Of a stretch of DNA of 4,905 nt, positions 1-4,905 are shown piece by piece. Below the pieces are notes generated by a model, which was given only the letters and a program-made list of their open reading frames with translations, searched no databases and had not been told where the DNA came from. The translations under genes were made by a program, and so were the position numbers. The stretch comes from a virus. Its lineage: Duplodnaviria; Heunggongvirae; Uroviricota; Caudoviricetes. The stretch lies in the IMG/VR virus record IMGVR_UViG_2724679172_000008. One strand, written 5' to 3'. How positions within the stretch are numbered: position 1 is the stretch's first letter; each line of letters opens with the position of its first letter.

Positions 1-1031
1 CCCTTTGTCGTCAGGTATTCGCAGATATATTTGTTCAGTGCTATGGGATCTTTGTGAATGTCGATCGGACGCTCACGGACAAGGCCAAAAATAGTTTGGC
101 GGTCGTAGCGAAGGGCATCAGGCTGTTTGCGCATTGATGCCGAGATACGCTTCCAGTCTTCGCGGTCGTTATCGATAACTTCATTTTTTGCCCAGCGATG
201 GATGCTGCCGTCAATGTTTCCGGCATCCACATCACCAGGCCAGAGAGCGTAGGCCAGTTCGTCATCCAGTGTTTTCCATGTCTGCTTGTATTCGCGATGA
301 ATGGCAGCAATGACCGGGCTGATTTTTCCTGTTGAATTTTCAACTGTTGAATTTTCACTGTGCTGTTGATTGGTTCTGGCGCGGGCGAGATCAATAACAG
401 ACGTGTATTTTCCGGTTTCCTTGCGTTCACCTTCGCGACGTTTTTTCCAGATGCGCATCTCTGCCTGAATTTCGGGCCATTTGGCACCAGGCTTACATTT
501 ATGCTTAACCCACCCGATGGCATGCAGCTTAAGCTCCGGATACATGGCGTTAACTTCTGGCATTTTCATCAACGCTTCAACGATATGTCCGTCGAATGTT
601 GCCATGTCTTCCTGCAACAATTCCTGTGCGCTAATAACCATATCAACGGTGATGTTTTCACATGTGTCGAACTTAACCATGACAGCGTTCTGTACTTCAG
701 GGGCCAGCTTGTCAAAAGTGACGTTCATCGGATCTGATTCAGTCTCAACCGGGACAAAAGAAGCAGACTCCTCATCCCAGCGGTTTTCCTGCATATATTC
801 AGCATCCCAGGAATCGAGGGCAGGGCGGGGTATGCCGGGTTTATCCTCACAGACAATAAATTTATAAGCGCAGTCCTGAGCTGCAGGGAATTGCTCCAGA
901 AATTGCCAATGAAATTTTGCGCGTGCGCGACGCTCATCACCAGCTTCAATGGCAGTGGCCACCGCAACAGCGCTATCTTCTTTTATGGCCTGTTCATCAG
1001 GAATAGCAGCGCAAATAAAGACCTTACTCAT
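1..1031 (-). CDS. Large early-left prophage protein, 5' part only (343 codons in window, continues past the left edge); possibly YdfE-like by position downstream of dicB and the ydfD-like gene
   Basis: ATG at 1029-1031 on the minus strand with GAGG 9 nt upstream; an in-frame stop just upstream (1038-1040) fixes the start. I checked every triplet of this frame down to position 3 and found no stop. N-terminus reads MSKVFICAAIPDEQAIKEDSAVAVATAIEAG. It is absent from the supplied ORF track only because it has no stop inside the window; track ORFs 41-523, 360-737, 481-867 and 725-967 lie in other frames over it. The product name rests on synteny alone. Confidence 0.6.
   Translation of the reverse strand, partial: MSKVFICAAIPDEQAIKEDSAVAVATAIEAGDERRARAKFHWQFLEQFPAAQDCAYKFIVCEDKPGIPRPALDSWDAEYMQENRWDEESASFVPVETESDPMNVTFDKLAPEVQNAVMVKFDTCENITVDMVISAQELLQEDMATFDGHIVEALMKMPEVNAMYPELKLHAIGWVKHKCKPGAKWPEIQAEMRIWKKRREGERKETGKYTSVIDLARARTNQQHSENSTVENSTGKISPVIAAIHREYKQTWKTLDDELAYALWPGDVDAGNIDGSIHRWAKNEVIDNDREDWKRISASMRKQPDALRYDRQTIFGLVRERPIDIHKDPIALNKYICEYLTTK
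329..358. repeat. Two tandem copies of a 15-bp unit (CTGTTGAATTTTCAA / CTGTTGAATTTTCAC) inside the large left-edge gene; each contains the near-palindrome TTGAA-TT-TTCAA
   Basis: Direct reading: TTGAATTTTCAA at 332-343 and TTGAATTTTCAC at 347-358, period 15 bp; encodes the peptide repeat ENSTV-ENSTG in the minus-strand protein. Confidence 0.5.
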
Positions 1032-1126: not shown

Positions 1127-1315
1127 TTATCCAGCCGGTGTTTCGTTATTCAGGTACAGCGATACTTTTTTTAGCGGGAGGCATTCACCAGAAATTTTTT
1201 GCTCGTCTCTTGCCTGGAGGCAGGATTCTTTACTTGCATAAATTCCGGTAATCACATTCTGTGATTCACCCGTTATAAGAAAAACCGTCATCATCAGTGC
1301 AAATGCTGAAGTCAT
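1127..1315 (-). CDS. Small protein (62 aa) with N-terminal hydrophobic helix; YdfD-like (Qin prophage small membrane/lysis protein) by size, position after dicB and N-terminal character
   Basis: Track ORF MTSAFALMMTVFLITGESQNVITGIYASKESCLQARDEQKISGECLPLKKVSLYLNNETPAG. Its ATG (1313-1315) overlaps the TGA of the upstream gene (1312-1314), the classic ATGA translational-coupling arrangement. AT-rich relative to flanks. The YdfD identification is from memory of the Qin dicB operon order, not a search. Confidence 0.55.
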   Translation of the reverse strand: MTSAFALMMTVFLITGESQNVITGIYASKESCLQARDEQKISGECLPLKKVSLYLNNETPAG

Positions 1316-1500
1316 TGACGTTCTCCGAAAATACCAAGTTCAAGAAGAGCAATTCGGGAAAGTATGGAATTATCATTGAGCAGATAAGGCTCATATTTCC
1401 TCATATTAATGGCATCTTCAGTAAACTCCCGGTTACTGAGCAGAACACCAATATCAAAACAACCTTCAGACGTATTAACGTTTGGTAATAACGTTTCCAT
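1312..1500 (-). CDS. dicB: DicB-family cell division inhibitor (62 aa)
   Basis: Translation METLLPNVNTSEGCFDIGVLLSNREFTEDAINMRKYEPYLLNDNSILSRIALLELGIFGERQ. The N-terminal half matches my recollection of E. coli K-12 DicB (M-TLLPNVNTSEGCF-IGV--SN--FTEDAIN); length is also 62 aa. GAGGA sits 7 nt upstream of the ATG (1498-1500). It lies immediately downstream of a DicF-like sRNA and an RNase III-type hairpin, as in the Qin dicB operon. Confidence 0.75.
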   Translation of the reverse strand: METLLPNVNTSEGCFDIGVLLSNREFTEDAINMRKYEPYLLNDNSILSRIALLELGIFGERQ

Positions 1501-1678: not shown

Positions 1679-1736
1679 AAAAAGGGCGGCAGAGCAGTCA
1701 CGGAGTAAAACTGATACCGCCAAATGTCACCAGAAA
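1679..1736 (-). ncRNA. dicF: DicF-like sRNA (53-nt core, plus coordinates 1684-1736) with 3' GC stem (GGCGG/CCGCC) and U5 tract (1679-1683) acting as intrinsic terminator
   Basis: Minus-strand sequence TTTCTGGTGACATTTGGCGGTATCAGTTTTACTCCGTGACTGCTCTGCCGCCC followed by TTTTT. This matches my recollection of K-12 DicF at all but one position (A for G at position 12), which I cannot verify without a database. Context is right: dicB follows, with an RNase III-type hairpin between them. Confidence 0.7.
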
Positions 1737-2071: not shown

Positions 2072-2350
2072 ATGGATAAAAAGCAAATTGAGGCCCTGCA
2101 ATCTATTATTGAAGAACAAGATGAAGCTATCAGGATTCTTTCATATCGCACTGATATGATACTAAATATGCTTTCTGCATTAACGGCTGCGCTTGGTGGT
2201 ACAAAAACAAACGTATACCGCGAAGTTGTTATTCAACAGATAGATAAATTTGAAAAAACCATACCAGGTATTAATGCTCATCTTGCAGAACAAGAGAAAG
2301 ACTATGCTCTTATGGCAATTTCTTCAGTAGCTCTCCCGAAAGTTGAGTAG
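2072..2350 (+). CDS. Hypothetical protein, 92 aa; AT-rich accessory (moron-like) gene on the opposite strand inside the leftward operon
   Basis: ATG at 2072 preceded by a near-consensus Shine-Dalgarno (AGGAGG at 2061-2066, 5-nt spacer). Translation MDKKQIEALQSIIEEQDEAIRILSYRTDMILNMLSALTAALGGTKTNVYREVVIQQIDKFEKTIPGINAHLAEQEKDYALMAISSVALPKVE. Composition is visibly more AT-rich than the GC-rich region 1800-2030 just upstream. The track ORF begins at GTG 2033, but ATG 2072 has the RBS. I recognise no family. Confidence 0.5.
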   Translation: MDKKQIEALQSIIEEQDEAIRILSYRTDMILNMLSALTAALGGTKTNVYREVVIQQIDKFEKTIPGINAHLAEQEKDYALMAISSVALPKVE

Positions 2351-2723
2351 TTTTAATTGTTGTTTTGAAATAATCACTGCTTTCACATTTGAGTGATTTC
2401 ATGGCAATCCAAATGCGGGCCTCTGTGCCTGCATTTGGTTCCAGTTGCTGTAGACGTTTTGCGTCTTCCAAAAGTAAGGCGATAATGTGTTTCAGCTTCT
2501 CATCATTTGCTTGATTCTTGTTTTCAGGCGAATTCTGTCCGCCGAATAGGCGCTTCTCTTCATACAGACCTATAAAGGCACGACGCACGTTACCGGATAT
2601 AGTATCGATGGTTTCCTTTTCTACGGTACTCAGGTCAAGAGTCGCCAGTTGAGAGCGAACCACATTCGATGCCATTTCCTGGAATGGTACTGGTAAATCT
2701 TTAAATTCCATCGTCAACCTCAT
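2310..2723 (-). CDS. Hypothetical protein, 137 aa (or 133 aa from the alternative ATG at 2709-2711 with GAGG 6 nt upstream); second gene of the leftward operon
   Basis: Track ORF; its ATG (2721-2723) overlaps the TGA of the upstream small gene (2723-2725), an ATGA coupling. Acidic, helical-looking sequence with no motif I recognise. Its last 41 bp overlap the 3' end of the convergent plus-strand gene 2072-2350. Confidence 0.5.
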   Translation of the reverse strand: MRLTMEFKDLPVPFQEMASNVVRSQLATLDLSTVEKETIDTISGNVRRAFIGLYEEKRLFGGQNSPENKNQANDEKLKHIIALLLEDAKRLQQLEPNAGTEARIWIAMKSLKCESSDYFKTTIKTTQLSGELLKKLP

Positions 2724-3140: not shown

Positions 3141-3560
3141 CTATGATGCGTTTTGTGCTTTCTTTTTACGGATTTCTTCGTAGATCATATTGTAATACTG
3201 TTTTTTCTCTTCAAGAGTTTTTAATAATTTATCCGCTTCACTTTCTGGCAGTTCGTCTAAGAGATCTAAAAAAATACGTTGTCGTGGCGTTAGAACCCTT
3301 GTTTCATAACTGGAGGCTGTGTTCGTTGATGATGAAACGATACCATCCATCCATCCCCGGGGTAACCCAAAGGACTCTTCGATAATCTCCACCATATCAT
3401 CAGCGATCCGTTTTTTTCCCTTTTTCCCCTCTGGGTACAACATTCTTGATACATAAGAAGGCTCGCGCCCGATCTTTCTGGCCACGTTAACCGCTTTACC
3501 ATCGCATTTCTCATCACGAATTTTGATGAGTTGCTGTCGTCTAAATTCATATTTGTCCAT
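3141..3560 (-). CDS. Prophage repressor, DicA/RacR-family HTH protein (139 aa), no LexA-type peptidase domain
   Basis: Translation MDKYEFRRQQLIKIRDEKCDGKAVNVARKIGREPSYVSRMLYPEGKKGKKRIADDMVEIIEESFGLPRGWMDGIVSSSTNTASSYETRVLTPRQRIFLDLLDELPESEADKLLKTLEEKKQYYNMIYEEIRKKKAQNAS. N-terminal HTH (AVNVARKIGREPSYVSRM); the C-terminal segment L-P-x-LPESE-D-L resembles my recollection of DicA. It is divergent from a cro-like gene and flanked by operator repeats. There is no Shine-Dalgarno upstream of the ATG. Confidence 0.75.
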   Translation of the reverse strand: MDKYEFRRQQLIKIRDEKCDGKAVNVARKIGREPSYVSRMLYPEGKKGKKRIADDMVEIIEESFGLPRGWMDGIVSSSTNTASSYETRVLTPRQRIFLDLLDELPESEADKLLKTLEEKKQYYNMIYEEIRKKKAQNAS

Positions 3561-3661: not shown

Positions 3662-3943
3662 ATGGAAGAATTAAGAATATTTCTCAATTCTCTTTCGTCA
3701 GATGAACAGCGTATGTTTGCATGCGAGTGTGGTACCAGCATCGGTTATCTAAGAAAGGCATTGAGTAAAGGTCAAGTGTTAGGGGCATCGTTATGTGTCC
3801 TTATTGAGCGAGCCAGTAATGGTGAAGTTACACGTCAGCAACTAAGGCCTTTTGATTGGATGAATATTTGGCCCGAGCTGGAAGATACCAAAACGTTAAC
3901 ACAACCACTTTCTAGGAGCTTGATTCATGAAAATCAAGCATGA
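3662..3943 (+). CDS. YdaS-like Cro/CI-type HTH regulator (93 aa)
   Basis: AGGAG 5 nt upstream of ATG 3662. The segment IERASNGEVTRQQLRPFDW fits the IE-x-TNG-x-VT-x-E-LRPD pattern I associate with YdaS/Cro-like proteins. First gene of the rightward operon divergent from the repressor; its last 17 bp overlap the next gene. Confidence 0.6.
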   Translation: MEELRIFLNSLSSDEQRMFACECGTSIGYLRKALSKGQVLGASLCVLIERASNGEVTRQQLRPFDWMNIWPELEDTKTLTQPLSRSLIHENQA

Positions 3944-4352
3944 ACACATCCGCATGGCGATGAATGCCTGGGCGCGTCCTGATGGCGAAAAAGTTCCAGC
4001 AGCTGGAATAACCCAGGCTTATTTTGAGTTGGGTATGACGTTCCCAGAACTGTATGACGACAGCCATCCGGAAGCCCTGGCTCGCAATACCCAGAAAATT
4101 TTCCGCTGGGTAGAGAAAGACACCCCTGATGCTGTTGAAAAAATGCAGGCTCTGTTACCGGCGATCGAAAAGGCGATGCCGCCTTTGCTGGTGGCCCGTA
4201 TGCGCAGCCACAGTTCTGAATATTACCGTGAGATCGTCGAACGGAGGGATCGGCTGGTGAAGGATGTCGATGATTTTGTTGCGTCAGCGGTTGTTTTGTA
4301 TGACCAGATGAATCGCGGCGGCCCGGCAGGGAATGCTGTGGTGATGCACTAA
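3927..4352 (+). CDS. YdaT-family protein (141 aa), CII-like regulator / conditionally toxic protein of Rac-type prophages
   Basis: Begins MKIKHEHI and ends VVMH, matching my recollection of the termini of E. coli Rac YdaT (MKIKHEHI ... VIVH) and of similar length; AGGAG 8 nt upstream of ATG 3927; follows the YdaS-like gene as in Rac. Confidence 0.65.
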   Translation: MKIKHEHIRMAMNAWARPDGEKVPAAGITQAYFELGMTFPELYDDSHPEALARNTQKIFRWVEKDTPDAVEKMQALLPAIEKAMPPLLVARMRSHSSEYYREIVERRDRLVKDVDDFVASAVVLYDQMNRGGPAGNAVVMH

Positions 4353-4374
4353 AAGCACGGTGTTCGGGGGTTTT

Positions 4375-4866
4375 ATGAGCAGCAAGCTTCATGGTCTTGT
4401 CTGGGAAGGGTGCGCCTTCACCGGCATGATCTTATCCAGGGTGGCGGTTATGGCCCGTCTTGCAGACTACAGCAATGACGAGGGCGTGTCATGGCCTGCC
4501 ATTGAAACTATCCGGCGTCAGATCGGTGCAAGAAGTGAATCCACAGTGAAATCGGCTATTGCAGAACTGGCGAAAGAGGGCTGGCTGACGAAGGAAGAGC
4601 GTAAGGTCGGTGGGCGTAATGTAAGCAATATCTATCGGCTTAATGTGGAAAAACTCGAAGCAGCTGCGGCGGCGGCGCGTGAGTCATATAAACCGAAAAG
4701 AAAAATTAGCCCGGCAAAAAATGACCCGTTAACAGTTGACCCGTCAAATATTGACCCCTCAACGGTTGACCCGTCAAATTTTGATGGATCAACTGTTGAT
4801 AAAAAACTGCCGATTAGGGGGGCGATGATTGACCCCGATCCGTCAGTATTAAAACCTGATCCGTGA
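4375..4866 (+). CDS. Phage replication initiation protein, winged-helix HTH_36 type (O-like); 163 aa from ATG 4375 (track start GTG 4360 gives 168 aa)
   Basis: The segment ARLADYSNDEGVSWPAIETIRRQIGARSESTVKSAIAELAKEGWLTKEE has the LAD-x-NDEG-x-WPS-x-TIA-x-G-x-S-x-TV-x-A-x-L pattern of HTH_36 replication proteins. The C-terminus is a DPxxV pentapeptide repeat region encoded by iteron-like DNA repeats. It follows the cII-like gene, the position of lambda O. Confidence 0.6.
   Translation: MSSKLHGLVWEGCAFTGMILSRVAVMARLADYSNDEGVSWPAIETIRRQIGARSESTVKSAIAELAKEGWLTKEERKVGGRNVSNIYRLNVEKLEAAAAAARESYKPKRKISPAKNDPLTVDPSNIDPSTVDPSNFDGSTVDKKLPIRGAMIDPDPSVLKPDP
4721..4810 (+). repeat. Six phased 15-bp repeats (iterons) inside the 3' end of the replication gene; four good copies carry the dyad TTGAC-CC-GTCAA, a fifth the variant TTGAT-GG-ATCAA, the sixth is degenerate; a further partial copy lies at 4829-4843
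   Basis: Copies start at 4721, 4736, 4751, 4766, 4781 and 4796 (ATGACCCGTTAACAG, TTGACCCGTCAAATA, TTGACCCCTCAACGG, TTGACCCGTCAAATT, TTGATGGATCAACTG, TTGATAAAAAACTGC). Embedding origin iterons in the initiator gene is established for lambda O. Confidence 0.55.
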
Positions 4867-4905
4867 ACCGCCCCGGGAATCCTGGAGACTAAACTTCCTG
4901 AGAAA

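Follow-up and report, generated by a model that had tools for sequence, protein, structure and literature searches.

The 4,905-nt stretch considered here (IMG/VR record IMGVR_UViG_2724679172_000008; its whole length is called the window) represents the early region of an Escherichia coli lambdoid prophage of the Rac/Qin kind, and its last gene is a replication initiator that contains a tandem array of short dyad-symmetric repeats. As judged from sequence, this array quite likely represents the iterons of the prophage's lytic replication origin, held within the DNA that encodes the disordered linker of the initiator. By analogy, the locus is very probably an intragenic iteron origin of the lambda type that serves a different initiator family, and one that is inactivated in the window. 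An origin embedded in the initiator gene, following the logic of lambda O and ori, had been proposed in an earlier reading of the letters alone (the sequence-only reading), and the proposal is strengthened by DNA-level constraint on the repeat region, by its co-inheritance with the N-terminal domain, by the lambda O-like C-terminal domain of the protein, and by coordinates that match those of the lambda iterons.

The array (4721-4807) comprises six 12-bp units with the core TTGA-SSSS-TCAA: unit 1 (ATGACCCGTTAA, 4721-4732, with two mismatches), unit 2 (TTGACCCGTCAA, 4736-4747), unit 3 (TTGACCCCTCAA, 4751-4762), unit 4 (TTGACCCGTCAA, 4766-4777), unit 5 (TTGATGGATCAA, 4781-4792, reverse-type with a G-rich centre), and unit 6 (TTGATAAAAAAC, 4796-4807, degenerate). 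Start-to-start spacing is exactly 15 bp, in agreement with the earlier description of five repeats followed by a degenerate sixth at the same phase. Tandem Repeats Finder (TRF) reports a period of 15 with five copies and a better period of 30 with three copies (84% matches); the longer period fits better owing to two alternating spacer types, AATA/ATT and ACGG/ACTG. When up to one mismatch is allowed, TTGAYSSRTCAA has four matches, all within the array, compared with an expected 0.22 (standard deviation 0.45), and none of 200 dinucleotide shuffles reaches four. A 15-bp period puts adjacent sites about 154 degrees apart around the helix, or about 1.4 turns. Further related sites (TTGACCCC, CGATCCGTCA, and TGATCCGT) lie within 4721-4866, the region delimited in the sequence-only reading. 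As read from the sequence, the half-site TTGACCCC (4829-4836) overlaps the GATC-containing iteron-like CGATCCGTCA (4836-4845), while TGATCCGT (4857-4864; continued by CAG in intact copies) is cut by an insertion sequence (IS). The peptide encoded by the repeats is NDPLTV, DPSNI, DPSTV, DPSNF, DGSTV, and a final D; the sequence-only reading had described NDPLTVDPSNIDPSTVDPSNFDGSTVD as a low-complexity tail, and the peptide is as it stated, but the region is a linker within the intact 320-residue protein.

Whether such a repeat is maintained as peptide or as DNA can be read from its codons. Eighty loci were collected by alignment of the N-terminal domain (54-78% identity) from contigs representing one genome per species, including Erwinia, Edwardsiella, Morganella, Yersinia, Providencia, Proteus, Pantoea, Enterobacter, and others, together with five phage or E. 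coli loci. The codon alignment contains 79 non-identical open reading frames (ORFs) from Enterobacterales, with a mean pairwise identity of 76% and a minimum of 46% in the N-terminal domain, and normalised codon entropy was taken at columns with a conserved degenerate amino acid. The N-terminal domain has an entropy of 0.82 (72 columns), residues 101-177 have one of 0.23 (38 columns), and the columns just after have one of 0.73 (12 columns); the frozen zone differs from the N-terminal domain (Mann-Whitney, p=2e-15) and from the downstream columns (p=9e-6). Synonymous sites in the N-terminal domain are saturated, so that the control behaves as expected, and many linker columns have a single codon in all sequences (TCA, AAA, TCT, GAT, or TGT). 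Codon choice in the linker is correspondingly skewed: TCA and TCT together make up 84% versus 27% elsewhere, and AAA 95% versus 63%. This zone of frozen synonymous sites, taken to be an embedded cis-acting DNA element, covers 4675-4864 in the window (approximately residues 101-163), and in intact copies runs on through TTGACCCC, CGATCCGTCA, and TGATCCGTCAG to approximately residue 177. The sequence GA(T/C)CCGTCAGTA is conserved at 90-99% at the DNA level across 74 loci, and the columns corresponding to 4829-4845 use GAT in 99%, CCG in 95%, TCA in 100%, and GTA in 96%.

The repeat motif itself follows the same rule. TGA-N4-TCA has a density of 15.35/kb in a 250-nt linker window versus 0.35/kb in the flanks (approximately 2.3 kb per locus), and 150 of 229 successive spacings are exactly 15. 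The serine at the 3' arm of the unit is encoded by TCA in 216 of 218 instances (73/73, 69/69, and 74/76 across three units). The residue encoded by the centre codon is variable (T/P/A/V in one unit, A/G/P/T in another, A/P/R/G in a third), and the codon that precedes the unit has T as its third base regardless of the residue encoded (TCT, CCT, ATT, AAT, ACT, or TTT). Both orientations are found in the same frame in the subfamily closest to the window: TTGACCCCTCAA is translated as DPS 23 times, and its reverse complement TTGAGGGGTCAA as EGS 15 times. A Salmonella relative whose N-terminal domain is 42% identical (locus L171, 1844-1898) has the 23-nt sequence GTTTTCACCCGTCAGA(T/A)TCTGAC twice, 32 nt apart, translated first as FHPSDSD and then, in another frame, as VFTRQNLT. 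The initiator gene of this relative is followed by a Toprim/primase-type gene and not a DnaC-like gene. Given the frozen synonymous sites, the use of the motif in both orientations, and the presence of one repeat in two reading frames, selection acts on the DNA and not on the peptide.

Among closer relatives the linker is also stable. Eighty viral-contig copies have a 100%-identical N-terminal domain; the 320-residue ORF is kept in 77, and there are 16 linker variants, of which the most frequent (35 copies) is identical to that of the intact E. coli copy L001. Most of the remainder differ from L001 by one or two single-nucleotide polymorphisms (SNPs) in the linker, and one lacks a 5-residue unit. 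The sequence-only reading had named free variation of the repeats among close relatives as grounds for regarding them as a linker only, and these copies instead keep their length (77/80), mostly with zero to two SNPs.

A frozen stretch of DNA may also be expected at a recombination junction between exchangeable modules, homogenised because lambdoid phages often recombine there. The place at which N- and C-terminal modules are exchanged coincides exactly with the frozen zone, and the downstream block GATCCGTCAGTA... is common to both iteron subfamilies (described below) and to differing C-terminal domains. However, unit number and orientation differ between loci, and in L171 the motif is duplicated in another frame; homogenisation cannot explain the pattern, because non-synonymous differences persist, with variable centres and spacers between fixed arms. 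Exchange as the whole explanation is therefore considered improbable, although the recombination and origin readings are compatible, because the lambda origin itself is located at a domain junction of O.

The initiator gene (4375-4866, plus strand) encodes residues 1-163 of a 320-residue protein in the window and ends at a TGA stop (4864-4866). The assignment of the protein to HTH_36 (PF13730) in the sequence-only reading holds: the window protein scores 29.2 bits against a gathering cutoff of 25, with a weak DnaD_N match besides, and the predicted structure agrees. AlphaFold2 was run on the 163 residues with an alignment of 30 sequences from homologues, mainly partial proteins. Residues 1-105 (4375-4689, plus strand) are modelled as a winged helix with the topology H-H-H-H-beta-beta wing-H, at a predicted local distance difference test (pLDDT) score of 78-93, while residues 110-163 are without structure at pLDDT below 50 and are predicted to be disordered. 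The best Foldseek matches of the N-terminal domain in the PDB are dimeric winged-helix DNA binders of the MarR, PadR, and ArsR types, and this domain is presumed to read the iterons.

The remainder of the protein is known from intact copies. A megablast search with 4360-4905 (546 nt, containing the gene and the IS end) against 5426 complete E. coli genomes found at least 80% of the query covered in 1515; alignment to the intact copies ends at 4864 (query position 505 of 546). An example of the intact 320-residue gene is L001:5016-5978, followed after 6 bp by a gene for an IstB/DnaC-like ATPase. The intact initiator matches phrog_391, "replication initiation O-like" (2e-115), and the next gene, which is outside the window, matches IstB_IS21 (2.5e-19) and the DnaC-like phrog_50 (5e-82). 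Residues 182-300 of the intact protein are 39% identical to residues 171-277 of lambda O (E 5e-26), and by this measure the C-terminal domain is a true homologue of the lambda O C-terminal domain. The repeats thus encode a disordered interdomain linker between an HTH_36 domain and a lambda O-like C-terminal domain. The initiator has no match to the Phage_rep_O domain and its N-terminal part does not align to lambda O; because the N-terminal domain is unlike that of lambda O, the locus is in that respect an analogue and not an O orthologue.

The last 20 residues of the intact initiator (QRCVNHISEPDTEIPPGFRG, L001:5916-5975) are almost the same as those that end E. coli DnaT, matching PDB entries 9zbt_D, 2ru8, and 6aep with E-values of 1e-4 to 3e-4; owing to the IS, this tail is absent from the window. 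It also ends YdaU of the K-12 Rac prophage and approximately 45 of 84 HTH_36 initiators, which have three types of C-terminal domain. The gene order is parallel, with dnaT before dnaC as the initiators are before a DnaC-like gene. A 2026 paper states that the manner in which DnaT recruits DnaB/DnaC is unknown, and the literature searched contains no mention of the DnaT-like tail motif. The tail may be a portable peptide that recruits DnaC or DnaB.

The array keeps company with the N-terminal domain. It accompanies the HTH_36 domain where the C-terminal domain is lambda O-like (L001, L003, and L004) and also where it is DnaD/DnaB_2-like (L006 and L007). Phage mEp460_ev081 (L005:2699-2828) has the same C-terminal domain and DnaT-like tail with an unrelated N-terminal domain, and in the same place has another array, of five units at 23-24 bp with the core GGTCAAAATGA, which is presumably a further iteron set that has not been described. 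The flank of the unit distinguishes two HTH_36 subfamilies, T-TGAC versus C-TGAC: units in the group of the window are (A/G)TTGAC-CC-(G/C)TCAA and those of the larger group are AAATCTGAC(G/C)C(A/G)TCAAAA. On this comparison of sequences, we infer that the array behaves as iterons should if the protein encoded by the same gene recognises them through its N-terminal domain. DNA-level constraint and dyad symmetry do not themselves name the binding protein, and the array could be a cis site for another protein, such as a partition site or centromere, a repressor or Cro operator, or a pac site for the terminase small subunit, that is located here by coincidence; one of the Foldseek matches is a plasmid centromere-binding winged helix. 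Such coincidence has little probability given that the array is always at the interdomain linker of the initiator, follows the N-terminal domain through swaps of the C-terminal domain, changes when the N-terminal domain changes, and has the position of the lambda iterons. The neighbouring genes, by comparison, differ between loci: YdaT versus YmfL/YmfM upstream, and DnaC-like versus YfdN versus Toprim downstream.

The two remaining explanations are both very improbable. If the repeats had no function as DNA and were simply a low-complexity peptide linker that slippage of a 5-residue unit had generated, then the predicted disorder, the in-frame repeat (15 nt encoding 5 residues), and the copy number that differs between species (2-9 units) would all be accounted for, but not synonymous sites that are frozen in the linker and saturated in the N-terminal domain, a third base of the preceding codon that is kept across amino acid changes while the centre residue is free, use of the reverse-complement motif (DPS versus EGS), or the two frames in L171; very recent common copies are excluded by N-terminal domains down to 46% identity. 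An element acting as RNA or single-stranded DNA, either a long hairpin that regulates the initiator mRNA or a single-strand initiation signal, is suggested by folding of the single-stranded array at -16.9 kcal/mol (z = -5.3 versus shuffles), but this fold is an automatic by-product of tandem dyads, no common hairpin is kept because relatives retain the TGA/TCA arms and change unit number, orientation, and centre, and no Rfam family matches the repeat region. The resemblance of TTGAC to a -35 box had also raised the possibility of a promoter array, which was rejected: there is no sigma-70-like site in the gene, and the larger subfamily uses CTGAC.

Several observations weigh against the origin reading. 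The literature searched contains no binding or replication data for this initiator family, and a 2022 survey of the replication regions of Shiga toxin (Stx) phages reports a complete lack of knowledge about the replication proteins of these non-lambda types and mentions no iterons (PMC8951638). The candidate A/T-rich element is weak, with approximately 33% G+C over 40 bp, far below the A/T-richness of that in lambda. The tandem palindromes also give rise to dyads that have the spacers as their centres (GTCAA-N3-TTGAC); this second set makes the binding unit ambiguous, and 12-bp dyads at a 15-bp spacing leave little room for each bound dimer. Twelve of the 80 close relatives have C for A at 4754, which alters the core of unit 3, an imperfect unit to begin with; since this SNP is common, not every unit is essential. 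Lastly, the conservation of the downstream block could in part reflect recombinational homogenisation at the module junction. As for earlier descriptions of the array, none was found in the literature searched, and a previous in-silico prediction may be contained in the main review of phage replication modules, Weigel & Seitz 2006.

The unwinding site is uncertain because the candidate stretch is much less A/T-rich than that of lambda. No strong A/T-rich element is evident in G+C and nearest-neighbour profiles, only modest dips (z 2.3-2.6). The best candidate is TCAGTATTAAAACCTGATCCGTCAGATAAAAGATCTTCTT (33% G+C with three GATC sites), whose left part is at 4843-4864 in the window and which has the lowest stability of any 40-bp segment in the two replication genes (L001 5484-5523, z 2.46); it takes the place that the A/T-rich region has in lambda, after the iterons and before the homology to the O C-terminal domain begins. 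By nearest-neighbour stability, an A-tract-rich stretch on the left flank of the array (TGAGTCATATAAACCGAAAAGAAAAATTAG, 4680-4709; L001 5321-5350, z 2.6) ranks with the least stable 30-bp segments in the replication genes, and the right end of the array (4776-4805) is also among the least stable 30-40-bp windows of the two genes. The sequence-only reading had proposed a search for an A/T-rich unwinding element just beyond the end of the window; nothing useful lies there, as the locus is broken by the IS, and the adjacent element is only modest. GATC sites are clustered: four occur within approximately 90 bp (L001:5428-5518; positions 4787, 4837, and 4858 of the window and one lost to the IS) compared with approximately 2.2 per kb in the locus overall. 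Three of the four are inside TCAGTATTAAAACCTGATCCGTCAGATAAAAGATCTTCTT and two overlap iteron-like sites; in this mildly A/T-rich, GATC-rich block, the iteron-like sites TGATCCGTCA overlap Dam sites. Several relatives have a Dam-like methyltransferase gene one or two genes downstream of the initiator. The cluster may point to control of firing by methylation and SeqA.

If the array is an origin, then a sequence of events similar to that in lambda may be proposed. After derepression, rightward transcription from the cro-side promoter would, by analogy, express the initiator, and this transcription, which would begin with the Cro/YdaS-like gene as the first of the rightward operon, would cross the origin. 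The N-terminal winged-helix domain, probably as a dimer, would bind the 12-bp dyads TTGA-SSSS-TCAA and also the downstream GATC-containing sites GATCCGTCA. The resulting nucleoprotein complex would destabilise the adjacent modestly A/T-rich, GATC-rich stretch, with opening expected at TCAGTATTAAAACCTGATCCGTCAGATAAAAGATC, and the lambda O-like C-terminal domain together with the DnaC-like ATPase of the next gene would bring in host DnaB. A more specific model is rather unlikely in its entirety: sites on alternating faces would be occupied by a straight, interdigitated filament of winged-helix dimers that does not wrap the DNA, with opening at the GATC-rich block and firing sensitive to Dam and SeqA.

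The copy in the window would not be expected to follow this course. Its last 41-42 nt (4864/4865-4905, plus strand; the T at 4864 is common to the IS and the target) are the left terminal sequence of an IS3-family element (TGAACCGCCCCGGGAATCCTGGAGACTAAACTTCCTGAGAAA), identical to the IS end in strain UTAK-6 (L002), in which it is followed by an annotated IS3-family transposase with a programmed frameshift. As these nucleotides belong to the IS, the TGA stop of the truncated gene is supplied by it. Intact copies continue past 4864 as ...CCGTCAGATAAAAG. The copy of this IS in UTAK-6 is inserted in the same gene approximately 90 bp farther downstream and has a GTTG target duplication; the two insertions are independent hits in one small region. 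The IS site in the window lies inside the GATC-rich candidate unwinding block. The initiator's C-terminal domain is absent from the window because of the insertion, and since the IS splits both the initiator and the origin, the prophage is replication-defective: the C-terminal domain is removed, the origin is split after 4864, and the replication system is dead. The exact IS junction is absent from all complete E. coli genomes in the collection, where the lone full-length match consists of two joined pieces. The element presumably resembles IS629/IS1203, given an OrfA that starts MTKNTRFSPEV.

The rest of the window holds the other genes of the prophage early region. A RecE-type exonuclease gene, represented by its 5' part (3-1031, minus strand; phrog_2082), contains, on the opposite strand, a tandem repeat of 14-15 nt (TGAATTTTCACTGT, three copies, TRF score 61, 320-361). 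It is followed by a small ORF (1127-1315, minus strand) where related copies have an annotated DUF1482 gene beside dicB, by dicB (1312-1500, minus strand; NCBIfam, 114 bits), and, upstream of dicB, by the full-length DicF antisense small RNA (1684-1735, minus strand; Rfam RF00039, 77 bits, E 2e-16). With both DicF and dicB present, the prophage has a Qin-type dicBF cell-division-inhibition operon beside its RecE-type exonuclease gene. Two ORFs without Pfam or NCBIfam matches, of 92 residues (2072-2347, plus strand) and 137 residues (2310-2723, minus strand), are between DicF and a DUF1391 gene, which itself lies between these ORFs and the repressor. In other copies of this prophage type a RelE/RelB toxin-antitoxin pair is found between the DUF1391 gene and the repressor-side gene, which makes this a variable cargo region. 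The divergent repressor, in the position of cI, RacR, or DicA (3141-3560, minus strand), matches the transcriptional regulator phrog_5736 (6e-70), with a weak DicA match. The Cro/YdaS-like regulator (3662-3943, plus strand) has a weak YdaS_toxin match and is annotated "transcriptional regulator" in L001. Directly upstream of the initiator, in the cII position of the early right operon, is a YdaT-family gene (3927-4352, plus strand; Pfam YdaT_toxin 2.6e-9, with the same annotation in L001 and L002). The initiator is thus part of the early right operon and lies downstream of the divergently arranged repressor and cro-like genes.

The interest of the element extends beyond this prophage. The initiator gene is common in E. 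coli and has relatives across Enterobacterales, and HTH_36 proteins are the presumed replication genes of several Stx-phage types that are not lambda-like. A candidate origin offers a handle on replication after induction, which in Stx phages bears on toxin dose. The initiator, the loader, and approximately 250 bp would make a compact candidate replicon, and the linker illustrates cleanly how a cis element can overlie coding sequence and be recognised by its frozen synonymous sites.

Among the closest known systems is lambda (including the Stx-phage variants with six iterons). In both, the origin (here a candidate) occupies the central part of the initiator gene, where the linker that joins an N-terminal DNA-binding domain to a loader-recruiting C-terminal domain is encoded; the iterons are tandem and internally dyad-symmetric; the gene follows cro- and cII-like genes and precedes the helicase-loader gene; and the C-terminal domains are homologous. 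The four annotated lambda iterons occupy nt 349-433 of O and are followed by the A/T-rich region and then the C-terminal domain, while the array described here occupies nt 347-433 of its gene. The sequence-only reading had called the present iterons shorter than those of lambda and, unlike them, internally palindromic; the first part is correct (12 versus 18 bp), but internal dyad symmetry is no distinction, because the lambda iterons are also internally palindromic. The differences lie elsewhere. The lambda units of 18 bp are 20-24 bp apart, whereas the 12-bp units here recur at 15 bp with neighbours on roughly opposite faces of the helix; there are five to six tandem units with additional dispersed GATC-bearing sites and a weak A/T-rich tract; the N-terminal domain is an HTH_36 winged helix unrelated to that of lambda O; the loader is DnaC/IstB-like and not lambda P; and the initiator ends in a DnaT-like tail.

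In the Bacillus phage SPP1, as in other "replisome organizer" phages with an origin inside the initiator gene, the initiator (G38P in SPP1) has an N-terminal domain of winged-helix type and binds repeats inside its own coding sequence (at oriL in SPP1). Some relatives of the present initiator have a DnaD/DnaB_2-like C-terminal domain, and the window protein has the weak DnaD_N match; however, the initiator here has no Phage_rep_org_N match, the host range is Enterobacterales, and the repeat architecture differs. The K-12 Rac prophage, reported to have an active origin, oriJ, has the same slot and neighbours (a racR-like repressor, ydaS, ydaT, the initiator, and a ydaV-like DnaC homologue), and the C-terminal IPPGFRG tail is common to YdaU. 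Identity of oriJ with the present element was nevertheless rejected, as YdaU is a different protein (DUF1376) that is similar in the tail only, and no 15-bp array was found in ydaU. The Stx-phage types Eru5/6/8/11/13 share the HTH_36 domain family, and Eru8 and Eru11 also have a YdaT neighbour; Eru types are classed by the content of presumed replication genes next to cI, with no origin or iterons reported (PMC8951638). Plasmids of the Rep_3 group (pSC101, F, P1, and R6K) likewise have tandem initiator-binding repeats by an unwinding element and winged-helix initiators, but their iterons are 17-22 bp long, approximately two helical turns (about 21-22 bp) apart, and outside the rep gene, while the units here are 12 bp at 15 bp, inside the gene of an initiator that has no Rep_3 match. 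The principle would thus be the known one of lambda, and what differs here is its combination with another DNA-binding domain, with shorter and more tightly spaced units, and with a loader of the DnaC type.

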